Assembly: GCA_052034235.1 (NCBI GenBank)
Contig: JBPOIT010000011.1
Location: forward strand, 37,756 to 101,755
Source: Candidatus Levyibacteriota bacterium
GTDB taxonomy: Bacteria; Patescibacteriota; Microgenomatia; Levybacterales; UBA12049
Direction: 5' to 3'
DNA length: 64,000 nt
This document shows, piece by piece, positions 2,480 to 27,155 of the stretch. The position numbers were made by a program, and so were the translations under genes. Numbering within the stretch: the first letter of the stretch is position 1; every line of letters starts with the position of its first letter. A model generated the notes under the pieces. It was not told the origin of the DNA. It saw only the letters and a list, made by a program, of their open reading frames with translations, and did not search any database.

Positions 2480-5400
2480 CTATTGTACCATACGACCAAA
2501 CTTGAACTCAAGTAGGAGTTTGGGGAAGAAATAAAGTACAGCTGGCAAGAGTGATAAAACAATAAGAACAAGACCGTTTAATTTAAAAAACATATCTGGT
2601 TGCACCATAAGTAACCAGCCGCTGGTCATGAGTATACTGATCGTAATGGTTAACCCGTAAGCGAGCAAATTACTCCTGAGTACATACCTTATAAGAAGTA
2701 TACTGCCTACAACGAGCATTATTTGCTGCAGGAGAGATTTTATAATATCTTCGTTTGATTTATTCTGCGGGAGCGCTAGAAGTATTATCAATAACGCAAC
2801 AACCCCACACGTTTTCTTCCAGGTTTTAAGATATCGCTTTATAAGCAAAAGCATTGCCATAAAGAAGAAAACTCCCCCTAGAATCAAAGGCAGCTCGCCT
2901 ATTGCTGAAAGCGCAGGGAAATATGTATCAAGTTTTGGGAATGTTTCAAAGGTTGTCATTGAGGAGAGCCATTCATTGGTACTTAAAACAGCAATCAGTA
3001 CGCTTGAGAGAGCAATCACAATAAACGGTGTTGCATAACTTGCAAGAATTGCATCTTTTACATAGGTAGTTCTCTTTTCTGCTTTATCAGGTAAGATATG
3101 CCCAAATTGTTCTTTCCAAAGCGTTAAAAATGTGGCACTGACAACCGATACCACAAAGAAGCTCACCACAAAAGCCAAAATGCTGATAAGAATTGATTGG
3201 ACAATATAGGTTTGCATTGGAATTGCTGTATTGTAGTTACTATAAAAATTGGAAAGGCTATTTAAGGTAATCAGTATGTTCACAATGGTAATTAACCCAG
3301 CGATTTTGTAAGACAAACGGAAATTAAGTTTTTTCTCGCGCAAGTACGAAAAGAAGCTTTTAAAACCAAACCATGCTATAACAAGACCAAAAATGCCAAT
3401 GATTCCACCAACAAAAAAATCAAAGTTACTCGTTTCACTTTGTTGACGAATCCAGGTTTCAGGCAATTTTAAATTGCTACTAAACCCTGAAACTTTATCG
3501 CCAACAACCACCACTTCAGTTTGAAATACTGCCTCCCCTATTGCGCTTTTCTTTTCTTCGTAAACGAAAACATGATCTGTTCTCTTTTCCTTTTTATCTT
3601 GCTTACTTTCTATTAACTGATAATTTTGCATGTTAAACCCTTTTTCCATTTTCAAATACTCATTAGCAAGTTTTTGTGCTTGGGTTTGAGACAAATTGGC
3701 GCCTGCAGCTTTTTCATCAAGCGAATAAATGACTTGTTCTACTTTTCCGTCTGGCAGCACATCGACGTCGTATGATTCCTTTTGCAGCGGTTTAAAGTAC
3801 GTTACAGTCCAATATCCAAGCGGCAGTTTTTCAGAATAAACAGATTGTAATTTTTTATAATCTGCCACTTCAAGAATATATTTTTCTTCAGATGAGATAT
3901 CGTTTGGGGTAAAAGTTATGACGCTTGAATAGCCATTGGTATCCACCTGGCGTTTGATGAGAGCTTGATCGGCAATTTTTTTGACCTCTTCCCGACCGAT
4001 TGTGGTTGGCAATTCCTCAGTGGGTGCTTGCGGAAAAAATGGTAATACGCTTACCAAACTAACCAGAGACAATCCGAAGATAAGCATTTTCCGTTTTCGC
4101 GTCAGAGGTTTATAAGCAGTATCAACAACTGCGACAACGTGTGTTTGTTTTTCAAGTTTTTCAGCTTTGAGATTTTCGTTCAGGTCTTCTTTTCGCTCGG
4201 GTGCAAATCCTTTTTTTTGTATTGCCAGTAGCAGTAACCCAACTGCCACAATGAATGGTAAAAGCGAGACAAGCGTACTTGAAACACTTGCATAGAAATT
4301 GCCTGATTGATAAAAAGAAATTGCTGTTTGAAGGGCATTAAACGTGTAATGAGCAGTAAATGAAGCTAAAAATCCGTAGCGGACAAATATCCACCCGAGA
4401 ACAACCCCGATTACGCTAATCTCAATTCCGCGCACAAACCACGGCGACTGCGGATAATTACTATGCAAAAATCCCCACACGATTGCGGTGATAATAATTG
4501 CAACCCATGTGCTTTTGAACATTTTTTTCAAAAACGGTATACCAAAAAGTCTAAAAATCCCCTCTTCTGATGCTGCTGCCAAAAAGCCGATAAAAAGCGG
4601 ATACACCCACGGAAGAAGTGTGCTGTAGATATCAGAATAATTGATCGCCGCTGGCGCCCAAAACCCGACAGATTTACCTAGGAAGTAATACAACAGTTCG
4701 TAGGTAAAAAAGATAATCCCGGCAAACGTCCCGACAAACAATGCCTTATTAACTGCCTTTGTTTGGAGTGCAGTTGTATAAAGTGATTCGAGTGAAAGCT
4801 TTTGAGGAAAAACCTGTCTGAACTTTGCTTCTCCTGCAGTTATGACAAACAGCACCGATGCGCCTTCAAAAAGTCCACCCAAGACGCTTACAAGGACAAT
4901 GCTTGCAATAAAAGCTTCCCAACTCACTGTCGTTGTATAGCCAGCAAGAGAAAGCGGAATTGAATTGAGTGCTGTCAAAAGTGCGATGACTGCGGCAGCG
5001 AGTGCTATGTATCGAAGTGAGTTGATGCGAAGATTATTGTGACGATATTCTTTAAAGTACGTGATAACGATTGCAAGTCCAAAGACAAGAAGCATGAGGA
5101 CTTCAGCGACAACTTGTGCTAAATCGTTATTGGAAGTTTCATTTTCATACGCCCGTTGCCAACTTTCTGGGATTTTAAGATATTCATAATACCCTCCAAT
5201 TTTATCACCAAAGATCTGTACTTCCATCCGATACGTTGCTTCATTTGCCTGAAATCCAATTTTCTCCCAGGTAAAGATATGATCTATGCGGGATTTTTGT
5301 TCACTACTTTCACTGTTGACGAGTTTCCACTTTGTTATATCTGTTTGTATCGTTTTTGTGATGAATGCTTCGGCAGTTTTTTGCGCAGCTTCTTTATCAA

Positions 5401-5836
5401 GCGATGCTCCCGATGCATTTTCAGAAATCTCATGATAATATGCGACAAATTTGCCGCTTGGCAGATACGAAACACTTATTTCTTCCTGTTCTAGTGGTTT
5501 AAAAAACCGAGTGGTGAAATGCCAGACATCGATGTCATTTTGTGCCAGTCGCGCAGTTTCAGTCACGCCGACTTCCCGCTCGAGATACGTTTTACTCGCA
5601 TCATCAATCGTAAAAACCGTCGCCTCTTTAAAAGTATTACTAGCAATCCCCTGTTCCAACGCAAACTGCTTCGCCTTCTCAGCTGCCTGTTCCCGTGTGA
5701 TATCAAAAGATATATTATGTTCAGGAAATGCTAACGTTCTGAAGTTGATGAAGAAAAATAAACTAACTAAGGCAGCAAAAAAAAGGACACCTAAAAATAA
5801 TTTTTCCTTTGTTGAATAAAAGTTTTTTATATTCAC
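2480..5836 (-). CDS. Giant polytopic membrane protein with an internal tandem duplication. Each half has two PepSY-like extracytoplasmic modules and a multi-TM domain. The first TM domain is a CPBP/CAAX-type intramembrane metalloprotease (Abi family)
   Basis: 1118 aa. CPBP motifs in the first membrane block: ASEEGIFR (EExxxR), VWGFLH (FxxxH) and FTAHYTFN (HxxxN). PepSY-like repeats occur at ITREQAAEKAKQFALEQGI and LDKEAAQKTAEAFITK in the first half, and at IGREEVKKIADQAL and LSQTQAQKLANEYLK in the second half. The second membrane block lacks the catalytic motifs. Confidence 0.8.
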   Translation of the reverse strand: MNIKNFYSTKEKLFLGVLFFAALVSLFFFINFRTLAFPEHNISFDITREQAAEKAKQFALEQGIASNTFKEATVFTIDDASKTYLEREVGVTETARLAQNDIDVWHFTTRFFKPLEQEEISVSYLPSGKFVAYYHEISENASGASLDKEAAQKTAEAFITKTIQTDITKWKLVNSESSEQKSRIDHIFTWEKIGFQANEATYRMEVQIFGDKIGGYYEYLKIPESWQRAYENETSNNDLAQVVAEVLMLLVFGLAIVITYFKEYRHNNLRINSLRYIALAAAVIALLTALNSIPLSLAGYTTTVSWEAFIASIVLVSVLGGLFEGASVLFVITAGEAKFRQVFPQKLSLESLYTTALQTKAVNKALFVGTFAGIIFFTYELLYYFLGKSVGFWAPAAINYSDIYSTLLPWVYPLFIGFLAAASEEGIFRLFGIPFLKKMFKSTWVAIIITAIVWGFLHSNYPQSPWFVRGIEISVIGVVLGWIFVRYGFLASFTAHYTFNALQTAISFYQSGNFYASVSSTLVSLLPFIVAVGLLLLAIQKKGFAPERKEDLNENLKAEKLEKQTHVVAVVDTAYKPLTRKRKMLIFGLSLVSLVSVLPFFPQAPTEELPTTIGREEVKKIADQALIKRQVDTNGYSSVITFTPNDISSEEKYILEVADYKKLQSVYSEKLPLGYWTVTYFKPLQKESYDVDVLPDGKVEQVIYSLDEKAAGANLSQTQAQKLANEYLKMEKGFNMQNYQLIESKQDKKEKRTDHVFVYEEKKSAIGEAVFQTEVVVVGDKVSGFSSNLKLPETWIRQQSETSNFDFFVGGIIGIFGLVIAWFGFKSFFSYLREKKLNFRLSYKIAGLITIVNILITLNSLSNFYSNYNTAIPMQTYIVQSILISILAFVVSFFVVSVVSATFLTLWKEQFGHILPDKAEKRTTYVKDAILASYATPFIVIALSSVLIAVLSTNEWLSSMTTFETFPKLDTYFPALSAIGELPLILGGVFFFMAMLLLIKRYLKTWKKTCGVVALLIILLALPQNKSNEDIIKSLLQQIMLVVGSILLIRYVLRSNLLAYGLTITISILMTSGWLLMVQPDMFFKLNGLVLIVLSLLPAVLYFFPKLLLEFKFGRMVQ

Positions 5837-11792: not shown

Positions 11793-14033
11793 ATGAAATT
11801 AACGATACGAGCAAAATTACTGATAGGATTTACCTTGTTACTCCTTTTGTCTTCACTAGGGCTCGCCTTTTCATTCACAGCAACAGGTGACTACATTTCC
11901 TCACTCACCAAAGATAATCAGGCACAGGAAGCGAAAAAAGGTTCAGTACAAATTCAAAATTTCTTTACCAATATAAATGATATAACTTTTGGACTCGCTC
12001 GAACCTACAAAGATACTTTTTTAAATGCAAGTCAGTCGGCAGCATTTACAGATTTTAGTGCAATCAATCGCTATAGTATTCAAAATAATGAGCAGATCAA
12101 TAAAATAACCTACCTCTTACCTTCAGGACGACAACTCTATCGATTTGATATCCATGGACAAGTACCCCAGGATAGTTTGAATTATGAAGTTTATTCAGAC
12201 GCTTTCACTAATGCAGCACATGGAAAAACATCCATTTCAAAAGTGTACTTTATAGATCAATCATTAGGTCCACATTTAGATGTTTTTTCTCCTATTTATG
12301 ACAACAACCACACGGTGCGAAGTATCGTTAAGATGCAAATCAAACTTGAATCTCTGCGCAAGAAACTCGAAACGATTAAGTATGGTGAAAGGGGGTTTTT
12401 ATATGTTGTCGATGAAGAAGGTCGCCTCATAACACACCCATCCCAGCAATATGTTATACAGCGGCCAAACTTAACATCCCGAAAAATCGTTGCTATGACC
12501 GCACAGAACAAAAAGATAACTAAAAACGATGAAACTTATGTGAACGAAAAAAATATACCTGTTATTGCCAAGGCTGAGAAAATTCCAGGTATCAACTGGA
12601 TTGCAATTATTGAAGAACCACAAGTCGATGCAAATAGCTATCTCATTTTTCTTCGTAATCTTTTTATCAGTACCTTCATTGGAGCCTCACTCTTATTACT
12701 GCTTGTTTCACTCTATCTCAGCGAAAATTTCACACGGCCGATTAGACGATTACAGAAAGACGCTGAGAAAATTGAGAAAAAGCAAATGGACACTATGGAA
12801 ATAATAAAAACCGGAGATGAGATTGAAGCGTTATCGCGATCGTTTAGTTCAATGGTGAACCAATTATTATTACGCGAAAGCTCGATAAAAAATGAAAACC
12901 AAAAAATGATGACCTTACAACAATCCCTTTCAGATGCTGTGATTGGCCTTGATTCAGAATATCAAATTATCGCATTCAATAGAGCAACTGAAAAAATTAC
13001 AGGTTTTAAAGCGGAAGAAGTAAAGGGGAAACATATAAACGAAGTCTTATTGCTTTACTCTGATCACGAGAGAATTATATTTGATACATATAGCGATCAA
13101 AATCCATCAATGAAAGAAAAACTCCGCGAAAAAGGCTTAAGAATGACAAACACACGGGGAGAAAAACTTACTATTTCAATTACTACCTCCCCTATTCTTT
13201 TTGACGATAAAAAGACAGGTTATATCATAGCATTCCATGATATGACGAAAGAGCATGAACTGGAAGAAATGAAACTGGACTTTGTGTCTATGGCTGCACA
13301 TGAACTTCGTACACCTTTAACAGCAATTAGAGGCTATGCATCAATTCTTCAGCAACAGAAACAAGATCTTCTGGATGTTGTAGGAAAAGAAATGCTTCGA
13401 AAACTTATTATCACCGGTGAAAATCTAAGTAACCTGATAGATAATTTGTTAAGCGTTTCACGTATTGAACGCAATATGTTTAGTCTTGATAAAAAACCGG
13501 TAAAGGTAGATATGCTCATTACCAATGTCGTTGATACGCTAAAAAATCAAACGACAATGAAAAAACAACAATTGAACATTAAAGTCCCAGGCGATCTCCC
13601 CGAAATTATGGCTGATCCGTTTCGTATCACGCAGGTAATTTTAAACCTTGCCGCAAATGCGAGTAATTATACTTTTGAGAATGGAAGTATTACTATAGAA
13701 GCGCAAAAAAAGGACGGCTTTATTCAAGTATCTGTAACAGATTCGGGGCAAGGCATTCCAAAAGAAGCATTATCCAAGCTTTTTACTAAGTTCTTTAGAG
13801 TATCGGGCACACTTGAGCAAGGATCCAAAGGGACAGGATTAGGGCTTTATATTTCCAAATCGATAATAGAAATGCATAACGGTAAAATTTGGGTAGAAAG
13901 CGAGGTCGGCAAAGGATCAATATTTACTTTCGAACTTCCAACAGCTACTGATGAAGACATCAAACAATACAACGAACGAAACACAGCTCTCAAACTCTCA
14001 CAAGCAAACACACCTACCATACACCATAGCTAA
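11793..14033 (+). CDS. Sensor histidine kinase (Cache-like extracellular domain, HAMP, PAS, HisKA, HATPase_c)
   Basis: 746 aa. TM, a large periplasmic domain, a second TM, then a HAMP-like region. PAS at SLSDAVIGLDSEYQIIAFNRATEKITG. H-box at FVSMAAHELRTPLTAIRGY. G-boxes at GTGLGLYISKSIIEMHNGKIWVES. It lies 15 nt downstream of the SBP gene. Confidence 0.9.
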   Translation: MKLTIRAKLLIGFTLLLLLSSLGLAFSFTATGDYISSLTKDNQAQEAKKGSVQIQNFFTNINDITFGLARTYKDTFLNASQSAAFTDFSAINRYSIQNNEQINKITYLLPSGRQLYRFDIHGQVPQDSLNYEVYSDAFTNAAHGKTSISKVYFIDQSLGPHLDVFSPIYDNNHTVRSIVKMQIKLESLRKKLETIKYGERGFLYVVDEEGRLITHPSQQYVIQRPNLTSRKIVAMTAQNKKITKNDETYVNEKNIPVIAKAEKIPGINWIAIIEEPQVDANSYLIFLRNLFISTFIGASLLLLLVSLYLSENFTRPIRRLQKDAEKIEKKQMDTMEIIKTGDEIEALSRSFSSMVNQLLLRESSIKNENQKMMTLQQSLSDAVIGLDSEYQIIAFNRATEKITGFKAEEVKGKHINEVLLLYSDHERIIFDTYSDQNPSMKEKLREKGLRMTNTRGEKLTISITTSPILFDDKKTGYIIAFHDMTKEHELEEMKLDFVSMAAHELRTPLTAIRGYASILQQQKQDLLDVVGKEMLRKLIITGENLSNLIDNLLSVSRIERNMFSLDKKPVKVDMLITNVVDTLKNQTTMKKQQLNIKVPGDLPEIMADPFRITQVILNLAANASNYTFENGSITIEAQKKDGFIQVSVTDSGQGIPKEALSKLFTKFFRVSGTLEQGSKGTGLGLYISKSIIEMHNGKIWVESEVGKGSIFTFELPTATDEDIKQYNERNTALKLSQANTPTIHHS

Positions 14034-16432: not shown

Positions 16433-17761
16433 ATGTTTACCTCAAACAGCAAATACATATCGCTAGTCGTTTTTATTACCCTTTTATTTACAATTGGCAA
16501 TCTTTTTCTGCTATATAAAAACGTGCAAACGATAAGAGCAAACGCAGCCTCAGTCAACCATACCCACACCGTCAAACAAGAACTAGCAGGAATCTTGCAA
16601 GCCCTGACCGATGCTGAAACTGGTCAGCGCGGTTATTTAATAACAAATGATGAGAGGTATCTAAAGCCTTATATCGATGCTAAACCTACTATGTTTAGGT
16701 ATTTAAACGATGTTGAAAATTTAACCCACGATAACCCAATACAACAAGCCAACGTCGACGAATTAAGAGCATTAGTGCAACAACGTATGAACTGGCTTGA
16801 AGAAGGTGTTAAAATGCGAACTGAACAAAATTACGAATCTGCACAGACTTTTATAACCACTGGTGTTGGTATAACGACAATGATTGAGGTGCGAGAGAAA
16901 GTATCAGCCATGCTGATCGAAGAAGATCGACTCCTGAAAGTGCGTGAAAATCAAACGAATAGCAGTTTTAGAACCCTCAATATTACGAGCGGCATTGGAG
17001 GTTTATTTAATATTGGATTAATACTTTTGTCTTTCTATTTAATAAAAGAAGAACTACAACGGCGTAATCAACTTGAGAAGAACAAAGACGATTTTATCAG
17101 TATGGCGAGTCATGAATTAAAAACGCCAATTACAAGTCTAAATATTTACACACAAATCGCCGTAAAAAATCTTGAGAGAAAAAAGTATACCGAGACAAAA
17201 AAGCTGCTTGAGAAAATAACCAACCAAACAGCTCGACTATCCTCACTCGTTACGGATTTACTGGATATCTCACGTGTTCAGACAGGAAAATTAAAAATTG
17301 AACACTCCCCTTTTGATATCGATGCACTCATTCATGAAACGGTCGAAAGTATCCAGCAAACGACAGCAAAGCATAAAATTACCGTAAAATCTACTATAAA
17401 ACGTCAGGTAAACGGAGATAGATATCGCATTTATCAAGTGTTAACAAACTTGCTAACGAACGCTGTCAAATATTCTCCCAAAGGAAAGAAAATTACCGTA
17501 CATGCGAAATCAACACGTAAAGAAGTAGTTATTGCTATAAAAGATCAAGGTATCGGTATTGAAAAGAAACATCAAAAAAAGATATTTCAAAAACTTTATC
17601 AAGTAACTGACTCTCATGGGAATACCTATCCTGGATTTGGGATCGGACTTTATATCAGTTCACAAATAATCAGGCAGCACCGTGGAAAAATTTGGGTAGA
17701 AAGTAAAAAAGAGAAAGGTTCAACATTCTCTTTTAGCATTCCGTTTAATGATAATGCATGA
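16433..17761 (+). CDS. Sensor histidine kinase with a CHASE3 extracellular domain
   Basis: 442 aa. TM, a CHASE3-like region (TDAETGQRGYLITNDERYLKPY), a second TM, an H-box at FISMASHELKTPITSLNIY and HATPase motifs at GFGIGLYISSQIIRQHRGKIWVES. Confidence 0.9.
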   Translation: MFTSNSKYISLVVFITLLFTIGNLFLLYKNVQTIRANAASVNHTHTVKQELAGILQALTDAETGQRGYLITNDERYLKPYIDAKPTMFRYLNDVENLTHDNPIQQANVDELRALVQQRMNWLEEGVKMRTEQNYESAQTFITTGVGITTMIEVREKVSAMLIEEDRLLKVRENQTNSSFRTLNITSGIGGLFNIGLILLSFYLIKEELQRRNQLEKNKDDFISMASHELKTPITSLNIYTQIAVKNLERKKYTETKKLLEKITNQTARLSSLVTDLLDISRVQTGKLKIEHSPFDIDALIHETVESIQQTTAKHKITVKSTIKRQVNGDRYRIYQVLTNLLTNAVKYSPKGKKITVHAKSTRKEVVIAIKDQGIGIEKKHQKKIFQKLYQVTDSHGNTYPGFGIGLYISSQIIRQHRGKIWVESKKEKGSTFSFSIPFNDNA

Positions 17762-20252: not shown

Positions 20253-20579
20253 TTATACTTTGAGAATTTTGTATTCTCCAATAAGCGGCAATGGTTTCAT
20301 TTCACCATTTGCTGCACTAATAATTCCCATTATCCAAAGGACGAGTCCACCTATACTGACTACACCACTTATCAATGAACCAATAACTGGAATAAAACTT
20401 GAGATTATATTTCCAGCAAAGAAAATAATAAGTATAATCAGCGATTGATTTGCATGAAATATCGCAAACTTTGAATTTTTTGCTGACGTAATTAAAGGGA
20501 TAAAAAATAAAATATACGATAATATCGCCATTGTTTTGTTTTGTGAAACATCACTAGATTCAGATGACATAAAAAACAC
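20253..20579 (-). CDS. DUF4870-like small membrane protein
   Basis: 108 aa. ILSYILFFIPLI...FAIFHANQSL matches the DUF4870 core. 2-3 TM segments. Confidence 0.55.
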   Translation of the reverse strand: MFFMSSESSDVSQNKTMAILSYILFFIPLITSAKNSKFAIFHANQSLIILIIFFAGNIISSFIPVIGSLISGVVSIGGLVLWIMGIISAANGEMKPLPLIGEYKILKV

Positions 20580-20591
20580 CTCCTTTCTTTT

Positions 20592-21497
20592 TTAATATTC
20601 TTCCGGTGCACTATACTCGACCGGAGGCTGAGAATCAAATTCGGATTGAGCAGTATCTGCCTCTTTTTGATATTGTTCCATCATTTTTTGAACATCTTCA
20701 TTATTCATATCCGGAGTGCTGCTATCAAAAGTGTTCGGTTCACCTTCTTTAACAGGTGAAGGTTCAGATATCGATACTTTTCCATAAGTATAAACGGACT
20801 CATTTACCATACCGCTTTTATCTTCCATTCTCATTTTTCTCATTAAATAATCTTTATCATCAAACCAAATATACATTTTGGTATCTGTAGAATCAGGACT
20901 GACCATTTCGTATTTAAAACACGTAAGATCACCACAAGGTTCTTTGGCTATAAATTGATATGTGGTATTGTCCTCGAGCGCAGTATTCTCGTCAAAAGTA
21001 TTCTTATCAATTAACTCTTCAGTTGAAGTTTGCTTTGTATCGTCAACTTTAAATGTTTGCTTCCACCATTTATTATCAGAATAATCTAAGGTATAGGTAA
21101 CATCCCCAATTGAGATTGTGTTCATATTTTCCTTGCCGTTCATTTTTGAAGCCATATGAAACTTATCGGTTCCGTCAATTTCATATATTGATTCTGTTGT
21201 CATCTCATCGAATTTGCCAGTTGATGATACTGCGTAGTTCGTTTGTGCCGGAAAATTATTTATGAATTTACAAAGTTCAGGATCGTTGTATTTGCAATTG
21301 GGATTAAGTGCAGGTTTGACAAATGGCAAAGCTGAGCTTCCAGCTCCTCCACCTTTTTGTGTAAAAAAATAAACACCACCAGCACCCACAAGCACAACGG
21401 CAACGATTGCGACAAGTACAATTTTTGAGATTCCTCGGGGTTTAAACGTAGATTTTCTTCTGACAGTTTTCTGTTTCTTTTTAACTATTTTCTTCAT
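20592..21497 (-). CDS. Hypothetical membrane-anchored extracytoplasmic protein
   Basis: 301 aa. Basic N-terminus plus a TM segment. Two Cys pairs (CKYNDPELC, CGDLTC). Acidic C-terminus. Confidence 0.55.
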   Translation of the reverse strand: MKKIVKKKQKTVRRKSTFKPRGISKIVLVAIVAVVLVGAGGVYFFTQKGGGAGSSALPFVKPALNPNCKYNDPELCKFINNFPAQTNYAVSSTGKFDEMTTESIYEIDGTDKFHMASKMNGKENMNTISIGDVTYTLDYSDNKWWKQTFKVDDTKQTSTEELIDKNTFDENTALEDNTTYQFIAKEPCGDLTCFKYEMVSPDSTDTKMYIWFDDKDYLMRKMRMEDKSGMVNESVYTYGKVSISEPSPVKEGEPNTFDSSTPDMNNEDVQKMMEQYQKEADTAQSEFDSQPPVEYSAPEEY

Positions 21498-21553
21498 TCT
21501 ATATGTAGCATACGCATTTCACGAATCTATTGTCAATACATGAGTTTTGAGAT

Positions 21554-23509
21554 TTAATTTTCCGGGTTATAAACAGAAAGAAATTCTTTAACCTGCTTAT
21601 GCTCCTCCAAAGTCTTTTTGGCAAGAATATCAATTGAAGAGAGTTTCTTTTCAAATATCTCTGTTTGCGCAAAGAAAGGATTTCTTTGAAGTGCTCGTCT
21701 TGCTTTTGTTGTGTGGTTGAGAATATCACTATAAATTGAAATAATATTTTTTTGCCAAAATTGCTCGTTCGTTTTTGCAACAAGAAGATCGATATTTAAT
21801 GCTAATTCCTGTCCTTTTTTCTGCAAATCTAATAATGCTTTTGCTGCAATTGCATTGATATGTCCATGTCTTAGATCCTCTTCAAAATCGTGCGCATCAT
21901 CATTGAGTTGTCGGGCAATTATATAATGATAGAAAAATTTCAAAAGCAACTTTACTTCTGGTGATTTTCTGTTATATCCTAAAGCAAACAAAACGGCAGT
22001 AGGCGCAATTGCATGACCCATTGAACGTTTAGCCAGCATTTCATATTTCCCATATTCAGGCACGTGAATATCGCCGATCCTAACAATCCCTGAAACATTT
22101 ATTCTGCATGTCTTAACCTCCCAACTATTTGCTAATTCTAACTCGTCCATTGTCTGGTGAAAAAATGTAAGAAACTCATCATTGTTTTCTAGAACTGTTG
22201 TGAATATTATGGTTAATTCCCGAAGTGCAATGTTTGCAATTGGCAGCATTTTAGCCTCTCCTTCCCCATCCAAAAAATCATCGTAAATTGTATAGGCAAT
22301 CCAACCATATAAACTTGCAGATCCCAAAATGATTATTTTTTCTATAGGGACTGTTTTATGAGTATTCTTACGACTAGCTAAAATTAAATATGGCAGAGCA
22401 GTTATTTCTGAACCCATCGCTCCATTAATTGTTTGGTTAATAATCGAATGGGCATCAGTTTTTAATTTGCTACTCTCTCGAATAAATCTACGAGAAACAC
22501 GACGAACCACTGCGTCTTGCACACGAACTACTTCAGTTAATTCATCATCAGTTGCGTTTTGTTTACTACTTTTCGTAAGCAATTTGTTATACTTTTCTAT
22601 TGCAAGTAAACAAAATGTAGTCGTTAATGCTTTCGAACCTGCATAATGCTTTTTTCCATCCATGACTGGATCTACGTAAAATCCAAAAGGATTCCATGCT
22701 CCACTTCGTTGTTGTGATACTAAATATTTTATATCTGCTTCAACTTTAGAAGGCGGCATTTTAAAATTAAGAAGCGCTAAAACGATAAGAGCACGAAGCA
22801 TTGGATTATCAATATGTTTATTCTTTAAATTAAGTAATATATCAATAAGTAACTTTTTTTTCTGACCCTTATACCAACGTGAAATAGAATAAATGACGGG
22901 AATTTCAGAATTATAATAAGGTGAGTTTATTTTATTATATTTAATGGCTGTATCGACGAAATTTACGAGACGAGGAAGTTCAATTTCTTGCAACGCAAGG
23001 AAATATGCAATGTTGCTATTAACGACAATATCTACATCCTTCCAAACAGATGATGCGTCTTCTGAAACTAACCATGTTTTATATGGTCCCCCTTCTTTGA
23101 CTTCAAGCACTGTCAATAGTGAAATAATACGTGCTAATGCAGCTCCATCCAATAATTTCGGATTAAATTCGTATAGCGCCGCTAGTGCACAAAAGGTATC
23201 ATCTAAATCATCAGGATAAGGAAATCTTATCGATTCTTTTGAATTACGTTCCCAATAATTAAATGACCAATTTTCTGTTCTTTGTGAAAGTAAATATGAG
23301 GCCGCTTTCTTTTTCATTTTTTTAATTTGCAAATTATCATCAATGTGATTCAAACACGTGAGTATCAACGCCGTTGGAAAAATTGAGTGTAATTTCTTTG
23401 AAGAACTAAAATCATCGGGGTTAGAAGATGAATAACTTATAAAACAACCATTTGCACGCTGTTGGCTTTCAAGAAAAGCAATCCCCTTCTCTATCGATTT
23501 TTTATACAT
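21554..23509 (-). CDS. Two-domain terpenoid-enzyme-like protein. N-terminal class II terpene-cyclase-like alpha/alpha-barrel domain fused to a C-terminal squalene/phytoene-synthase-like (class I isoprenoid synthase fold) domain
   Basis: 651 aa. Three QW-type motifs (KGIAFLESQQRANGCF, AASYLLSQRTENWSF, IKYLVSQQRSGAW) plus PYPDDLDDTFCALAAL, which matches the DxDDTA motif of squalene-hopene/CPP-type cyclases. The C-terminal YTIYDDFLDG (Asp-rich motif 1) and ARQLNDDAHDFEEDLRHGHIN resemble the second Asp-rich motif of CrtM/PSY (QL.N...D..ED...G.I). Its start lies 4 nt after the kinase stop, so the two are translationally coupled. Confidence 0.7.
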   Translation of the reverse strand: MYKKSIEKGIAFLESQQRANGCFISYSSSNPDDFSSSKKLHSIFPTALILTCLNHIDDNLQIKKMKKKAASYLLSQRTENWSFNYWERNSKESIRFPYPDDLDDTFCALAALYEFNPKLLDGAALARIISLLTVLEVKEGGPYKTWLVSEDASSVWKDVDIVVNSNIAYFLALQEIELPRLVNFVDTAIKYNKINSPYYNSEIPVIYSISRWYKGQKKKLLIDILLNLKNKHIDNPMLRALIVLALLNFKMPPSKVEADIKYLVSQQRSGAWNPFGFYVDPVMDGKKHYAGSKALTTTFCLLAIEKYNKLLTKSSKQNATDDELTEVVRVQDAVVRRVSRRFIRESSKLKTDAHSIINQTINGAMGSEITALPYLILASRKNTHKTVPIEKIIILGSASLYGWIAYTIYDDFLDGEGEAKMLPIANIALRELTIIFTTVLENNDEFLTFFHQTMDELELANSWEVKTCRINVSGIVRIGDIHVPEYGKYEMLAKRSMGHAIAPTAVLFALGYNRKSPEVKLLLKFFYHYIIARQLNDDAHDFEEDLRHGHINAIAAKALLDLQKKGQELALNIDLLVAKTNEQFWQKNIISIYSDILNHTTKARRALQRNPFFAQTEIFEKKLSSIDILAKKTLEEHKQVKEFLSVYNPEN

Positions 23510-23513
23510 ACAA

Positions 23514-25004
23514 TTACTTTTTTTTAGATTTATTTTTCGTTTTCTTTTTAAGTTTAAGAGACGGATTAAATATCAAGGTAAACGTTGTTCCTGCACCTTC
23601 TTTACTTATTACTTCTATTGATCCTTTAAATTCTTTTTCTACAATATCTTTACAAAGCGCGAGTCCTATACCCGTTCCTTTTTCAAAACTTTTCGTGGTA
23701 AAAAGAGGATCATAAATTTTAGGAATAATACTTGCAGGAATACCAGAACCCCAATCCTGTATTGAGATAATCACAGATCCTTTACTTTTGTTCATTGTGA
23801 TTTTAATTTTATTATTTTCATGATCTATTTTATCGTAGGAATCTATACCATTTGAAATAATATTTGTGACAAGCTGATTGAACTTTAAAGGATTTCCAAA
23901 GAGTTTCACCTCACTTTGAGACTCATATATGATTTTTATATCCTCATGTGATGCTTTATACGTCAACATTTGAATCACTTGTTTTATTTCATCATTCAGT
24001 GAAAATTCCTGACTGATATCTTGGGTTTGGATTTGTTTCCTGGCTGCTCTTAAATAGCTTTCAATTCTTTCAGTTCCTATTTGTGCGCGATTCAAAGACG
24101 AATAAAGTTTTTCCTGAATTTGTATATGCTCGCTGTTCCTTCGTGCTTGTTCTAAATTTAAGGAGATAACATTTAATGGAGCCACCAATTCATGAAATAA
24201 ACCTGAAGATAATCTACCAAATTCTGCAAAGCGATAAAGCTGCATCAGTTTTTCAACCTGAACTTTTTTCAATTCCTGGGTCCTCTCTGCTACCATGACT
24301 TCTAACTGATCACGCTGTTTTTTCAAAGCAAGTTCTGACGACCGTGCACGTCTTAAAGCCTTTTCCATTTCACGATTATACAGCCATGAAATGAGTGCGA
24401 TTATAAAAAGAATGACTGTATACACAGTAACATCCGCTATAGTCGCTGGTAATTGTGTCCATGAAGTATTAAACGTAATAATGTGGTTCTCATAAGCAAA
24501 TAACAAGACTAATAATGTTAAGGATATAAGAATCGTAGCAAAAAGTGCAAATGATGAACTAATGAGAATTCCACCCATAATAATTACTAGGACATATGTA
24601 AGTAACGCAGAGGGAATATCTATTCCCCAGGTATAACTGGTATAAGTCGCTCCTAGGAAAAAAAGCGTTAGTAGAAAATAAGCAGCATATCGGTATTTGC
24701 CTTTATGCGAGAAATAATAATTAAGAAGTAATACAAAAAAAATACAGGAAGGAATTATTGATGATTCACCAACGAAAGCACTCCCTGTATTAGAATCTAC
24801 AACATCCGTAATAAGAGCAGATATAACTGCAACAAAGGTCAAACCTAATGCTGAGGTAAGAAGGATATTCAAAATGAATTTTCTTCTTGCCACATCCTTA
24901 TTATTTGATTTCGACTCAATAAATACTTTATATAATTTCTTTAATTTATAAAGTACGACGTGAGCTATATCAGATGATGTAAATGTATTCTTTATTATTG
25001 CCAT
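23514..25004 (-). CDS. Sensor histidine kinase, intramembrane-sensing type (6 TM, no large extracytoplasmic domain)
   Basis: 496 aa. N-terminal polytopic membrane region. H-box at LSSGLFHELVAPLNVISLNLE. HATPase motifs at QDWGSGIP and GTGIGLALCKDIVEK. Confidence 0.9.
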   Translation of the reverse strand: MAIIKNTFTSSDIAHVVLYKLKKLYKVFIESKSNNKDVARRKFILNILLTSALGLTFVAVISALITDVVDSNTGSAFVGESSIIPSCIFFVLLLNYYFSHKGKYRYAAYFLLTLFFLGATYTSYTWGIDIPSALLTYVLVIIMGGILISSSFALFATILISLTLLVLLFAYENHIITFNTSWTQLPATIADVTVYTVILFIIALISWLYNREMEKALRRARSSELALKKQRDQLEVMVAERTQELKKVQVEKLMQLYRFAEFGRLSSGLFHELVAPLNVISLNLEQARRNSEHIQIQEKLYSSLNRAQIGTERIESYLRAARKQIQTQDISQEFSLNDEIKQVIQMLTYKASHEDIKIIYESQSEVKLFGNPLKFNQLVTNIISNGIDSYDKIDHENNKIKITMNKSKGSVIISIQDWGSGIPASIIPKIYDPLFTTKSFEKGTGIGLALCKDIVEKEFKGSIEVISKEGAGTTFTLIFNPSLKLKKKTKNKSKKK

Positions 25005-25102
25005 GGTCTTGCGACAACTGGAGTTACCAACGCAACTAATGTCAACGCTGTAACACTTCTGGCAGCTTTACTTGTTAGGGTTTTCTTTAATATTTCTTTC
25101 AT
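24995..25102 (-). CDS. Micro-ORF (35 aa) with a signal-peptide-like or TM peptide, between the response regulator and the kinase
   Basis: The sequence aggaggtgataaaATG gives a strong Shine-Dalgarno. Translation MKEILKKTLTSKAARSVTALTLVALVTPVVARPWQ*. Its stop overlaps the kinase start by about 10 nt. Confidence 0.4.
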   Translation of the reverse strand: MKEILKKTLTSKAARSVTALTLVALVTPVVARPWQ

Positions 25103-25146
25103 TTTATCACCTCCTTTCTATTATACTATTTGTTCTAGAATAAGTG

Positions 25147-25815
25147 TTAAGCTTCTAATTTGTAACCCATACCGTGAACTGTTTTTATAAGTTTTTTGTC
25201 AAAAGCTTTATCAATGTGATCTCGGAGGTATTTAATGTGAACATCAATAGTGTTCGTTGAGGGCTCCTCGACTGTACTCCATACATGATCCAGAATCATT
25301 TCTCTCGTAATAATTCTTCCAACATTCCTAGCAAGGTATTCAAGTAAATAAAACTCTTTCTTTCTCAGTGAAATTCTTTTTCCCTCTCTTGATACCCTCT
25401 GATTATTTAAATCAATTTCAAGATCAGCGATCGAAATTATATTTGACTGAAGTGCTTGAGCAGGTCTTCTAAGCAAAGCACGTATCCGCGCTAATAATTC
25501 GTCCATATGAAAGGGTTTTGTGAGGTAATCATCAGCACCGGCGTTGAGTGCATCCACTTTTTTTGCAACAGCATCTTCTCCAGTTAACATTAATACAGGG
25601 ATAGTTTTCCCACCTTCTCTAATAATTCTACAAACTTCCAACCCACTCATGCCTGGCAGATTAAAATCAACAATAATGATGTCATATTCATTAACAAATG
25701 CTGCATATTCTCCTTCTTCCCCAGATAGAGCTATATCAACAACATAATTTTCTTCTAACTCTTCTTTAAGAGTCTGGGCTAAAACATTATCATCTTCTAT
25801 CAACAATATTTTCAT
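25147..25815 (-). CDS. OmpR/PhoB-family response regulator (receiver plus winged-helix DNA-binding domain)
   Basis: MKILLIEDD...IIIVDFNLPGMSGLEVC...DDYLTKPFHMDELLARIRALLRR, then the C-terminal winged helix (DVHIKYLRDHID...TVHGMGYKL). Confidence 0.95.
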   Translation of the reverse strand: MKILLIEDDNVLAQTLKEELEENYVVDIALSGEEGEYAAFVNEYDIIIVDFNLPGMSGLEVCRIIREGGKTIPVLMLTGEDAVAKKVDALNAGADDYLTKPFHMDELLARIRALLRRPAQALQSNIISIADLEIDLNNQRVSREGKRISLRKKEFYLLEYLARNVGRIITREMILDHVWSTVEEPSTNTIDVHIKYLRDHIDKAFDKKLIKTVHGMGYKLEA

Positions 25816-26120
25816 GAGTAAAATTCGGTATCAGTATACCAGATGAAACACTACTAAAACTTTATTAAATTTTTATTAAATGATGAATTATTTACATAAA
25901 TATTACATTTCTGTCATGCTTTTACAATATCAAAGGTATATAGTTAAATTTAAGAATGATACTTAAAGCACAAGGAAAATTTGTGTTTAATTGTTGTTTT
26001 CTTTTTAAGATTGTTTAATCTCTTATGTCGAATTCTTATTTTAATTTAGTTCAATTTGTTGTATACGGGGCAATATTCAGTTTTTATTTTATTATACTGG
26101 AATCAATATTTAACTAAATA

Positions 26121-27155
26121 TTATAGTCCTGAAAGGTCACGAATTTCTTTTTCGCTAAAAGGAGTTATCTTACTTGTAAGTACCGTATTTAATTTTGTGA
26201 TCACAGCATTTGCTATAAATCCATTCACAACCGTGCCTGTATGAACACCATCTTCAAGATAAAAATTATTAGGATTATTGCTTAACATTACTCGCTCAAT
26301 CTGAACTCCGTCAACCGTAAACTGACCACTATCATCCTTTCTGAATAACTCTTTATAGACAGCATTTATATCCACCGTCATCAGATTTTCTTCCTGAGCA
26401 AACTTGTCAATTTCTGCATTCGTATCATTTATAACTTCTGTTACAAAAATTCGCTGTTGTGGCAACGGAAAAGCAACCTTCACTCCTAGATGATTGCCCC
26501 AATCAGGAATTTTGATAAGTACAATTCTGACATCCCCTGCATCTTTGAGCGTGTATACTATTGTTTTAATATCTGCAAGGATATGGTTCTCAATGCTTTT
26601 TTTTGCTGAGTTAGTAAGGTTACCGCTATAAATAGCTTCGTAATGTTCATGTGGCATATAAGGCGAAAAATCAAGCGCCCCTATAAAAACAACGACGACA
26701 TTAACTTTACCTTCTTTTATTTGTTGTGCAGCTCCTATATGCTGCCCGCTTTCTATCACACTATTCGAAGTCGCACCTGTTCTTGCCCAGTTATATTCAT
26801 AACCGTCTCGTCTAGGCTCTTCACGCCTCCCCCACTCACCGACGTTTACATTTCTATATTTGGATAACAGTTCAACCCAGTTATATGTCGTAGAAGCATA
26901 ATTACTCCCCCGCCAGTCATCAGCACGGTATTCGTCCGATTGACTGTCTCCAAGTACCGCCATGCCCTTCATAGTGAGCGGTGCGGGGGTCGCTGACGGA
27001 ATGAGGTATTGAAGTCTATCACTCACCAAACCAGGATTCTGAAATGTGAAAATCGTAGCAGCTAATGAACCTAAGCTAATCACTGCCATCAAAAAAATGC
27101 CGAGAATTTTTATGACTCTTATAACGTGATTAATGTTTTTATTATTTTTCTTCAC
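26121..27155 (-). CDS. Membrane-anchored SGNH/GDSL-family hydrolase (esterase/lipase-like)
   Basis: N-terminal TM, then VLGDSQSD (GDSxxD block I) and a C-terminal DGVHTG (DxxH block V). Confidence 0.7.
   Translation of the reverse strand: MKKNNKNINHVIRVIKILGIFLMAVISLGSLAATIFTFQNPGLVSDRLQYLIPSATPAPLTMKGMAVLGDSQSDEYRADDWRGSNYASTTYNWVELLSKYRNVNVGEWGRREEPRRDGYEYNWARTGATSNSVIESGQHIGAAQQIKEGKVNVVVVFIGALDFSPYMPHEHYEAIYSGNLTNSAKKSIENHILADIKTIVYTLKDAGDVRIVLIKIPDWGNHLGVKVAFPLPQQRIFVTEVINDTNAEIDKFAQEENLMTVDINAVYKELFRKDDSGQFTVDGVQIERVMLSNNPNNFYLEDGVHTGTVVNGFIANAVITKLNTVLTSKITPFSEKEIRDLSGL

Follow-up and report, generated by a model that had tools for sequence, protein, structure and literature searches.

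Why would a bacterium with a small genome encode a two-component system next to a terpenoid enzyme? The question is raised by a gene cluster in a 64,000-nt stretch of DNA (the window) from Candidatus Levyibacteriota bacterium (GCA_052034235.1, contig JBPOIT010000011.1, positions 37,756-101,755 of the forward strand). The host is a CPR (Patescibacteria) bacterium, which bears out the small-genome organism supposed in an earlier note on this DNA. That note was aware of no described system wiring a two-component system to a terpenoid-type enzyme, and thereby overlooked ComQXPA and the PalP/PalX/PalQ cluster (PMC10853753).

Gene layout of the locus

The six minus-strand ORFs were recovered with all of the coordinates and gaps originally given for them (Table 1). 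The response regulator (RR) gene is separated by 44 nt from a micro-ORF that overlaps the histidine kinase (HK) gene by 10 nt, and the HK gene is followed after 4 nt by the gene encoding a 651-aa enzyme. Further along, 56 nt separate the 651-aa and 301-aa protein genes and 12 nt separate the latter from the gene of a 108-aa protein. A promoter scan of the locus gave matches no more numerous than in shuffled sequence, and no terminator was found in the same scan.

Table 1 Features of the locus, in window positions.
Feature	Positions	Strand	Evidence
Direct repeat, candidate RR operator	25851-25881	(-)	Sequence and repeat statistics; RR binding inferred
OmpR/PhoB-type response regulator, 222 aa	25147-25815	(-)	Response_reg and Trans_reg_C
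Shine-Dalgarno of peptide gene, GGAGGTGA	25107-25114	(-)	Read from sequence
Precursor-peptide gene, 35 aa	24995-25102	(-)	Family HMM
Sensor histidine kinase, 496 aa	23514-25004	(-)	HATPase_c, hydropathy, orthologs
651-aa enzyme fusion gene	21554-23509	(-)	ORF coordinates
Enzyme N-domain, residues 1-315, predicted single-domain class II terpene cyclase	22565-23509	(-)	
Enzyme C-domain, residues 323-651, trans-IDS-like, candidate Trp prenyltransferase	21554-22543	(-)	
301-aa anchored protein	20592-21497	(-)	Lineage-specific neighbour
108-aa DUF4870-like protein	20253-20579	(-)	Lineage-specific neighbour

A four-gene module is conserved across CPR lineages

In all 77 related loci having upstream DNA the enzyme gene is preceded, on its own strand, by an orthologous HK gene, and the HK stop and enzyme start overlap at 37 of 62 measured junctions, 4 nt being the commonest. 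This synteny and the overlapping junctions argue that the HK-enzyme arrangement is non-random, and the link between a two-component system and a terpenoid enzyme first noticed in a single locus is real and strongly conserved. An RR ortholog (42-63% identity) is found on the same strand upstream of HK in most loci, and comparison of the neighbourhoods showed that the gene order RR, peptide, 6-TM kinase, enzyme is kept across CPR lineages. The conserved unit is four genes, encoding an OmpR-type RR, a precursor peptide of ~35 aa, a 6-TM HK and the putative cyclase-prenyltransferase enzyme, together with a candidate operator. No protease or exporter conserved with the module was found across the loci.

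Both signalling proteins are of the types originally assigned to them. The RR is an OmpR-type regulator (Response_reg 3.8e-27, Trans_reg_C 4.7e-26). The HK contains HATPase_c (1e-20), and its H-box is at His271. Before residue 215 it has five to six hydrophobic segments, and the protein is read as having about six transmembrane helices and no large external domain. Its orthologs are 29-48% identical and in most loci the alignment spans the transmembrane region.

The two distal genes, which the earlier note had included in the system, were dropped from it. Neither the 301-aa nor the 108-aa protein had a tblastn match in the 80 distant loci at E <= 1e-5, and the genes are retained only in close relatives in which the enzyme is 82% and 50% identical, alongside other local synteny. 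The description of the 301-aa protein as membrane-anchored with Cys pairs was accurate (N-terminal hydrophobic anchor; Cys at 68/76 and 188/193), and the domain search gave no family match for it. The 108-aa protein scored 24.6 bits against DUF4870, just under the 25-bit cut-off.

The N-domain resembles single-domain class II terpene cyclases

The 651-aa protein contains DDLDDT, two QW-like segments, DDFLD and QLNDDAHDFEED, all of which are invariant or nearly so family-wide. It had been read as a fusion of a class II cyclase to a class I enzyme of the SQS/PSY type, of which the fusion of a class II cyclase to an isoprenoid-synthase-fold domain stands and the SQS/PSY type does not. In fold comparison the (alpha/alpha)6 barrel of the N-domain resembles terpene cyclases more closely than it does other toroid enzymes. 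Profile alignment with the drimenol synthase AsDMS (E = 3.4e-13) placed YPDDLDDT opposite FPDDLDTT, such that D103 of the DxDD motif (D100-D-L-D103-D-T105, at 23195-23212) aligns with the Asp replaced in the AsDMS D333N structures. Across 43 sequences D100, D101, D103 and T105 do not vary, and a DxDD-type motif is present in ~240 of the 266 family members. The supposed match to class II cyclase motifs held for DxDD; for the QW repeats there are two QW-like segments, at residues 8-23 (with F instead of the final W) and 262-272. Homologs scored 25.8-25.9 bits against SQHop_cyclase_C, just under the 26.1-bit cut-off. From these alignments and the modelled fold we assign the N-domain as a single beta-domain class II terpene cyclase of the MstE/drimenyl-diphosphate synthase type with predicted cyclase activity.

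A squalene-hopene or oxidosqualene cyclase, which would be a beta-gamma didomain protein of ~620-730 aa, was considered and rejected. There is only one barrel (residues 1-315), the rest of the protein has the alpha isoprenoid-synthase fold, and the TIGR01787 score was 17 bits versus a 323-bit cut-off.

The C-domain is a candidate Trp prenyltransferase

The C-domain has a predicted all-alpha fold of the trans-isoprenyl-diphosphate-synthase (trans-IDS) type, for which the best structural matches were polyprenyl-diphosphate synthases and Ord1. The SQS/PSY identity was rejected because there was no Pfam SQS_PSY match and the fold is of the ComQ-like trans-IDS type. A FARM-like motif, D410-D-F-L-D414 (22268-22282), has D410 and D414 invariant in the family and D, N or A as its middle residue; it aligned with the FARM of the neighbouring polyprenyl synthases without statistical significance. 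In the second Asp motif, Q534-L-N-D537-D-A-H-D541-x-x-x-D545 (21875-21910), Q534-x-x-D537-D538-x-x-D541 is kept in all 266 members, with the Gln one helical turn before DDxxD. A Gln before the second Asp motif is a trait of ComQ, StheQ, PalQ and Ord1 (PMC13290415; 10.64898/2026.08.29.745113). The trait fits Trp prenyltransferases but is not diagnostic, because canonical trans-IDS also carry FQxxDD. Moreover, the second motif of the C-domain is a full DDxxD, as in chain-elongating enzymes, whereas the ComQ version is degenerate.

The C-domain matched no family in Pfam or NCBIfam and hhalign against polyprenyl synthases gave a non-significant E of 0.12, so that its assignment as a prenyltransferase rests on predicted fold and motifs. 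On that footing we consider it a candidate Trp prenyltransferase of the kind represented by ComQ, PalQ, the ChrPC P-domain and Ord1.

In 15 loci a genuine polyprenyl synthase gene (PF00348, 1e-58) immediately follows the enzyme gene, and in 18 it is in the vicinity; about a fifth of loci have it adjacent. Its position suggests that it may supply the prenyl donor, and we counted it in favour of a prenylated peptide. Counted against were the lack of a polyprenyl synthase in the 64-kb window and the fact that many CPR genomes are not known to have isoprenoid precursor pathways.

A Trp-peptide gene accompanies the enzyme gene

The micro-ORF encodes MKEILKKTLTSKAARSVTALTLVALVTPVVARPWQ, a 35-aa peptide in which the N-terminal region is conserved and Trp34 is invariant. 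The earlier note had named it only in passing. Besides the window, a peptide-family HMM matched 67 loci at E <= 2.3e-4, in every case immediately before HK; the next best of 16,012 small ORFs had E = 0.8, and the window peptide scored 1.1e-11 in a leave-one-out test. Manual translation recovered three apparently missing peptides, giving a peptide gene in 70 of the 70 related loci with enough upstream DNA. The micro-ORF is thus a conserved Trp-peptide gene that co-occurs universally with the enzyme.

Residues M1, L9, R15 and W34 are invariant in the peptide family. The invariant Trp is always followed by 1-6 residues, Pro directly precedes Trp in 56 of 68 peptides, and 64 of the 68 contain exactly one Trp. 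The peptide centre differs between lineages and in Saccharimonadia is polar, and therefore not a membrane helix. The peptide matched no family in Pfam or NCBIfam. In the window a strong Shine-Dalgarno sequence lies 4 nt before the peptide ATG (7 nt from the GGAGG core), and GAAAGGAG-type k-mers are enriched before the peptide ORF (15-23 of 38 loci versus a null maximum of 5-9). In the window the HK ATG sits within the Pro33-Trp34 codons of the peptide (CC-ATG-G, at 25001-25006).

An 11-bp direct repeat marks the RR promoter

The repeat preceding the RR gene consists of ATTTAATAAAA and ATTTAATAAAG in direct orientation with an 11-bp period, then a degenerate third half-site, and ends ~45 nt before the RR gene's start codon. 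The perfect site TTTAATAA-N3-TTTAATAA is the only one in the 64-kb window, where 0.39 would be expected by chance. Upstream of RR genes an 11-bp spacing was seen in 17 pairs of sites, with no other spacing seen more than three times, and of the 40 sites in ~1.1 Mb of locus DNA, 26 precede the RR gene of the module by 6-47 nt. Specific to the promoter of that gene, the 11-bp direct repeat is, judged by its sequence and position, a candidate operator that the RR would bind.

A proposed lipid-peptide signal cassette

What, then, does the module do? With modest confidence, we consider it most likely a self-regulated lipid-peptide signal cassette akin to ComQXPA and PalPXQ, having an NctPC/ChrPC-like maturase. 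We infer the chemical and signalling steps from the gene content, conservation, folds, motif alignments and repeat described above. The C-domain would ionise a C15-C20 prenyl diphosphate at its Asp-rich motifs and alkylate the indole of the conserved Trp of the peptide, in the manner of ComQ, PalQ and the ChrPC P-domain. Asp103 of the N-domain DxDD motif would protonate the terminal double bond and the terpene would become cyclised, either once the prenyl group has been transferred or beforehand at the diphosphate stage, as happens when drimenyl or copalyl diphosphate is made. The lipidated peptide, whether or not its conserved N-terminal region is removed, would be released or partition into the membrane, and the polytopic kinase whose gene immediately follows that of the peptide would sense it. 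Phosphorylated RR would then bind TTTAATAA-N3-TTTAATAA before its own gene, resulting in autoinduction. The peptide might instead act on the kinase in another way.

It is also possible, although we advance this tentatively, that the module is an ancient, nearly CPR-wide system of cell-cell or host sensing in which a ribosomal peptide bearing a polycyclic terpenoid on its single Trp is sensed inside the membrane by a dedicated 6-TM kinase and controls its own operon. If so, Patescibacteria would have their first peptide-pheromone circuit, and a cyclised-terpene peptide would for the first time be seen to serve as a signal and not just as a natural-product curiosity; the system could govern attachment to, or growth on, host cells. 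We found no description of such a cassette in CPR in the literature.

The modified peptide could instead be mainly an effector, such as an antimicrobial or host-directed lipopeptide, with the two-component system regulating its production or self-protection and possibly a nisin-like dual use. We think this unlikely. A peptide gene directly before and overlapping the kinase gene, behind a seemingly autoregulated RR promoter, is the layout of a pheromone circuit, and a nearly universal, single-copy module with a conserved peptide frame is unlike the typical variable toxin locus. There is also no conserved immunity gene or exporter. The host-attached lifestyle of CPR bacteria and the lineage-variable central region of the peptide do speak for an effector, and the work of Hubrich and colleagues in 2024 is said to include one prenyltransferase-cyclase product with modest anti-cyanobacterial activity. 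The maturase architecture, shared with enzymes that make bioactive RiPPs (PMC13290415), points the same way.

The membrane-lipid product put forward in the earlier note we judge less likely than a prenylated peptide, given that the micro-ORF proved to be a universally co-occurring Trp-peptide gene. As a full account, the protein would be a bifunctional class II plus class I synthase making a free membrane terpenoid, with a kinase that senses membrane state and a peptide that serves as accessory kinase regulator. CPR bacteria are not known to make their own lipids, and a membrane modulator is plausible for that reason; both catalytic motif sets are intact, the second (DDxxDxxxD) is also NSE/DTE-triad-like, a polyprenyl synthase adjoins in some loci and the kinase has about six transmembrane helices. 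We nevertheless regard this account as decidedly unlikely, since the structural matches of the C-domain are trans-IDS and Ord1 rather than class I cyclases or SQS/PSY, the polar centre of the Saccharimonadia peptides is no membrane helix, and the one additional partner present throughout, a peptide conserved in its single Trp and leader-like N-terminus, is what Trp prenyltransferases need.

That the C-domain is a chain-elongating prenyl-diphosphate synthase feeding the fused cyclase, with the peptide outside the chemistry, seems extremely improbable, for although its trans-IDS fold, both DDxxD-type motifs and upstream Gln are those of canonical synthases, the alignment showed apparently no counterpart in it of the IPP-binding GGKxxR-type motif and other conserved basic residues, PF00348 was absent even at E <= 1, and a separate genuine polyprenyl synthase adjoining in 15 loci would be redundant.

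Comparison with known systems

The signal cassette that we favour would fill, within a single locus, the four roles of the Bacillus quorum-sensing cassette ComQXPA, in which ComQ is the prenyltransferase, ComX the Trp peptide, ComP the polytopic kinase and ComA the regulator. Both have a trans-IDS-fold enzyme bearing a FARM and, ahead of its second motif, a Gln; both have a short precursor with a conserved internal Trp near its C-terminus and a multi-pass membrane kinase; and neither encodes a dedicated exporter or protease. The differences are the gene order (comQ-comX-comP-comA versus RR, peptide, HK, enzyme), the regulator (NarL/LuxR versus OmpR type), the kinase (8-10 transmembrane helices versus ~6), the host (Bacillota versus CPR), and the enzyme, which in the CPR module has an additional class II cyclase domain and a second motif that is a full DDxxD. 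No sequence similarity of the CPR enzyme to the ComQ family models of Pfam and NCBIfam was detectable. Membership in the ComQXPA family was rejected on the grounds of the OmpR regulator, the ~6-TM kinase and the gene order; the likeness would be one of function.

In Paenibacillus alvei PalP, PalX and PalQ are a kinase, a Trp peptide and a prenyltransferase encoded in one cluster (PMC10853753). In this cluster and StheQ/StheX (10.64898/2026.08.29.745113), as in the CPR module, a distant trans-IDS-like enzyme for Trp prenylation is clustered with a Trp peptide and a kinase, and the PalQ and StheQ enzymes were formerly annotated merely as terpene synthases or hypothetical proteins. They differ in that PalQ and StheQ have no cyclase domain and PalX is an NHLP-type precursor requiring a C-terminal Trp, whereas the CPR peptide is ~35 aa with 1-6 residues after Trp. 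The three-component peptide-pheromone circuits agrBDCA, comCDE and plnABCD of Gram-positive bacteria likewise place a peptide gene directly before that of a polytopic kinase and include a cognate regulator and direct repeats in a promoter under autoregulation, but they use HPK10 kinases, LytTR regulators and peptides that are unmodified or thiolactones rather than prenylated.

As for the enzyme, the N-domain finds its best structural match, and its only significant one by sequence, in the single beta-domain class II cyclases AsDMS (9mhs, 9m7d) and MstE (6sbb); the catalytic Asp of DxDD is aligned, and no gamma domain is needed for such a domain to work. In AsDMS, which uses FPP, the fusion partner is a HAD phosphatase, and MstE acts on a meroterpenoid. 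Neither enzyme carries a trans-IDS-like domain or has an associated peptide or kinase. NctPC and ChrPC are bifunctional prenyltransferase-cyclase RiPP maturases, which first attach a prenyl group to Trp and afterwards cyclise it (Hubrich et al. 2024, Chem 10:3224, as reviewed in PMC13290415). That review reports no two-component system linked to these enzymes; in the CPR loci the link is universal. In the CPR enzyme the cyclase domain is N-terminal. According to the same review (PMC13290415), these proteins join a Trp prenyltransferase to a single-domain class II cyclase of MstE-like kind, and the ChrPC P-domain is trans-IDS-like; a prenyltransferase-type domain and an MstE-like cyclase domain in one polypeptide are also found in the 651-aa protein. 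Likened by this published description, NctPC/ChrPC would be the closest match to the architecture and probable chemistry of the CPR enzyme.

Genomic context of the module

The six minus-strand ORFs described in the earlier note were recovered in an ORF check of the window with exactly the same coordinates and spacings. HMM searches bore out the assignments of the OmpR-type regulator (Response_reg, 3.8e-27; Trans_reg_C, 4.7e-26) and of the third ORF as a histidine kinase (HATPase_c, 1e-20) with His271 in the H-box. Hydropathy analysis placed five to six hydrophobic segments before kinase residue 215. A scan for promoters and terminators gave matches not above the level of shuffled sequence, and neither Rfam families (gathering thresholds) nor tRNA genes were found across the window (1-64000).

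The strongest evidence that the regulator, a 35-aa peptide, the kinase and the 651-aa enzyme form a module is genomic context. We compared 80 related loci (L numbers) from species-representative genomes of Microgenomatia-type lineages, Paceibacteria, Moranbacteria, Doudnabacteria, Colwellbacteria, CPR2 and Saccharimonadia. All 77 loci having upstream DNA carried a kinase ortholog (29-48% identity) 5' of the enzyme gene and in the same orientation, which upholds the proposed link between a two-component system and the enzyme. These orthologs covered the membrane region in most loci, and the regulator usually precedes the kinase. At 37 of 62 junctions the stop codon of the kinase gene overlaps the start codon of the enzyme gene, most commonly as ATGA. 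Upon clustering of all neighbor genes the only recurrent partners of the enzyme were the kinase, the regulator and a polyprenyl synthase. The last, a genuine one (PF00348, 1e-58), occurs in 18 loci and immediately downstream in 15; none was found within the window. No protease or exporter conserved near the module was found in the related loci.

The two downstream neighbors, previously counted as parts of the system, drop out of it, being absent from 80 of 80 related loci and not conserved past close relatives. Only relatives with enzymes of 82% and 50% identity retain the two genes, and other local synteny is kept there as well. The 301-aa protein has two Cys pairs, an N-terminal anchor and zero Pfam/NCBIfam family matches, and the DUF4870 score of the 108-aa protein is slightly below the cut-off.

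Two further observations concern the related loci. In L018, L024, L034 and L019 the cognate regulator gene is 3' of the enzyme gene on the opposite strand, with the peptide-kinase-enzyme core retained. Many module-bearing records (L002, L006, L010, L016, L048, L051, L078, L080 and others) are titled Gammaproteobacteria, Methylomirabilota, Vitreimonas, Sulfotelmatobacter, Dormiibacterota or Bacillota; these are binchicken and SMAG third-party assemblies, and the titles probably do not match the real taxonomy.

Features of the module and its surroundings (window coordinates unless a related locus is named)
Feature	Position	Strand	Remark
1118-aa CPBP-domain protein	2480-5836	-	
dCache-HAMP-PAS sensor kinase	11793-14033	+	
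CHASE3 sensor kinase	16433-17761	+	
301-aa and DUF4870-like genes	20253-21497	-	downstream neighbors
651-aa enzyme	21554-23509	-	
Histidine kinase	23514-25004	-	
35-aa peptide	24995-25102	-	
OmpR-type regulator	25147-25815	-	
Candidate operator	25851-25881	-	direct repeat, 11-bp period
Perfect repeat site	25862-25880	-	unique in 64 kb, 0.39 expected by chance
GDSL-like lipase/acylhydrolase	26121-27155	-	
Regulator-kinase gap of L082	4355-4567		left empty by public calls; encodes conserved peptide MKEMIVEALTNKAARSTADLSAVANETAFTPWGGDVS
Extra TTTAATAA repeat copies	L020 7938, L013 5227, L076 4813, L078 4851		before enzyme, polyprenyl synthase and Crp/FNR-like regulator genes

A conserved one-tryptophan peptide

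The spacer between the regulator and kinase genes is never shorter than 106 nt across the loci because a conserved small gene sits inside it. A peptide HMM constructed from 26 peptides was searched against 16,012 ORFs of 18-90 aa from the loci and the window. At E <= 2.3e-4 it matched the window peptide and those of 67 loci, the next-best value being E = 0.8, and all matches were on the same strand directly upstream of the kinase. When left out of the model the window peptide was still matched at E = 1.1e-11. Three loci with upstream DNA gave no HMM match and their peptides were found by manual translation, for a total of 70/70.

The peptides are 34-42 aa long, with M1, L9, R15 and one Trp invariant (exactly one Trp in 64 of 68), and have the consensus MKxxxxKxLTDKxAR followed by about 15 variable residues, PW and a further 1-6 residues. 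In the window the gene has the Shine-Dalgarno sequence GGAGGTGA, and the kinase ATG lies within its Pro-Trp codons. No Pfam or NCBIfam model matched the peptide. Gene callers mostly omit it, called copies are named 'hypothetical protein' with no Pfam family, and a database of 5.8 billion protein clusters contains only 63 of these peptides. Microgenomatia/Paceibacteria-type loci encode a hydrophobic peptide center and those of Saccharimonadia a polar one rich in Ala and Gln (e.g., AAVEDALMQQAAAVPW), lineage differences that resemble pherotype-like divergence.

A two-domain enzyme family

The 651-aa protein gave only weak alpha/alpha-toroid matches at its N-terminus (Pfam/NCBIfam) and none to any Pfam or NCBIfam family in its C-terminal half; a PDB search with the single full sequence found no match. 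Its homologs (P numbers) constitute a large family of full-length proteins of ~650 aa, nearly all named hypothetical and all from Patescibacteria/CPR. An exhaustive profile search at E <= 1e-30 returned 1,397 representatives of 50%-identity clusters, which is a lower bound (at least 1,397 clusters). When a cultivated Saccharibacterium carrying the enzyme was sought, the matches bore environmental MAG names only. PF28380.1 is precomputed on homologs P0026, P0035, P0056, P0063, P0093, P0105 and P0117; this accession may stand for a family, curated only recently, that spans part of the enzyme.

Alignment of 43 sequences gave invariant Y98-P-D-D-x-D103-x-T105 and GGPY motifs and several invariant aromatic residues in the N-terminal half. 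In the C-terminal half D410 and D414 of YDDFLDxEG and Q534, D537, H540, D541 and D545 of QLNDDAHDxExD were invariant. QxxDxxxDxxx[D/E] was present in 266 of 266 members and a DxDD-type motif in ~240 of the 266. In the AlphaFold2 model, a confident one (pLDDT 91.3), a disordered linker at residues 316-322 connects two domains. A full SHC-like didomain is ruled out, as there is only a single barrel. The SQS/PSY identity once proposed for the C-domain did not hold, given the lack of a family match and contrary fold evidence. Profile-profile alignment of the C-domain with polyprenyl synthases was not significant, globally or locally, and was used only to locate motifs. We propose that the C-domain is a prenyltransferase, based on its predicted fold and motifs.

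A candidate operator and other nearby genes

Upstream of the regulator gene, k-mers of the ATTTAATAA type were enriched. The direct repeat TTTAATAA-N3-TTTAATAA gave 17 pairs at 11-bp spacing and three or fewer at each other spacing, and control intergenic segments gave 7 pairs in 410 at the 11-bp spacing. With both strands of all loci considered there are 40 sites, 26 of them positioned 6-47 nt 5' of the module regulator gene. Single further sites precede the genes for the enzyme, a polyprenyl synthase and a Crp-like regulator adjacent to the module, and the module regulator may act on these extra copies too. Activators of the OmpR/PhoB family usually bind an 11-bp direct repeat over the -35 region. 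As the repeat fits this geometry, it is reasonable to infer that the regulator controls its own operon there.

The density of signaling genes in the window is high for a small-genome CPR bacterium, with two more sensor kinases, dCache-HAMP-PAS and CHASE3, within 14 kb of the module. Directly upstream of the module promoter is a GDSL-like lipase/acylhydrolase gene (below the Pfam cut-off, N-terminal anchor), which was not found among the 80 related loci. In the 1118-aa protein a YcdB/YcdC repeat occurs together with a CPBP domain of the Rce1-like CAAX prenyl-endopeptidase type (PF02517, 1.7e-12). The protein attracts notice in a window with a putative prenyl-peptide system because in eukaryotes the Rce1-like family cleaves prenylated proteins; it is ~17 kb from the module, and a similar gene recurs near the module in no other locus.

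Proposed mechanism

Given a kinase, a regulator, a one-Trp precursor and a trans-IDS-fold enzyme, and the Pal and NctPC/ChrPC precedents, we propose that the module is a self-regulating cassette for a prenylated-peptide signal, a model to which we give slightly better than even credence. The enzyme would put a prenyl group on Trp34 of the peptide and the same protein would cyclize the terpene, either before or after the transfer. The adjacent kinase would sense the modified peptide, and the regulator would switch on the operon via the direct repeat. It is also possible, although we think it unlikely, that the two-component system controls production of an effector lipopeptide. A free membrane terpenoid, the product favored in the earlier note, seems to us a distinctly doubtful outcome. 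That the C-domain is a chain-elongating enzyme would accord with its second Asp motif, a complete DDxxD as in such enzymes, but we consider this very improbable.

Significance and relation to known systems

The CPR/Patescibacteria comprise a large part of bacterial diversity and have tiny genomes and few regulators; to our knowledge almost no secondary metabolism or signaling has been described in them. In the literature searched, which included a Saccharibacteria genetics paper, a 2024 perspective, a TM7x transcriptome and a CPR gene-content study, we found no CPR module of the ComX-like, prenylated-peptide or two-component-terpenoid kind described. The same holds for a CPR survey of quorum-sensing genes, which reports small-molecule systems only, and for a 2025 cyclase-diversity survey that limited MstE-like matches to 300-400 aa.

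The breadth and conservation of the module make it of high interest, as does the fact that it renders CPR signaling directly testable. About 4.4 kb of conserved genes with putative autoregulation accompany the enzyme in Microgenomatia, Paceibacteria, Saccharimonadia, Doudnabacteria and CPR2. If the signal-cassette model is true, hard-to-culture organisms would have a concrete, testable signal molecule, possibly a cue for their cultivation or manipulation, and terpenoid-RiPP chemistry would gain a new branch of very large size. The decisive gene would then be one missed by annotation pipelines, mostly uncalled and always unnamed. The predicted operator sequence also makes in silico mapping of the regulon feasible.

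Hubrich et al. in 2024 reportedly predicted cyclic-terpene RiPPs in diverse bacteria. Since every element of the module has a precedent, we do not regard it as a system of a new kind. It shares with ComQXPA the logic of a kinase, a regulator, a short one-Trp precursor and an enzyme of the trans-IDS fold. The Paenibacillus PalP/PalX/PalQ cluster follows the same logic, its kinase, Trp peptide and distant 'terpene synthase' having proved to be a Trp-prenylation system (PMC10853753). NctPC and ChrPC are fused prenyltransferase-cyclase maturases that transfer C10-C20 prenyl groups to Trp, which are then cyclized; the P-domain of ChrPC is trans-IDS-like and its cyclase domain MstE-like (PMC13290415). 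The class II domain added to the CPR enzyme has its direct precedent in these two proteins.
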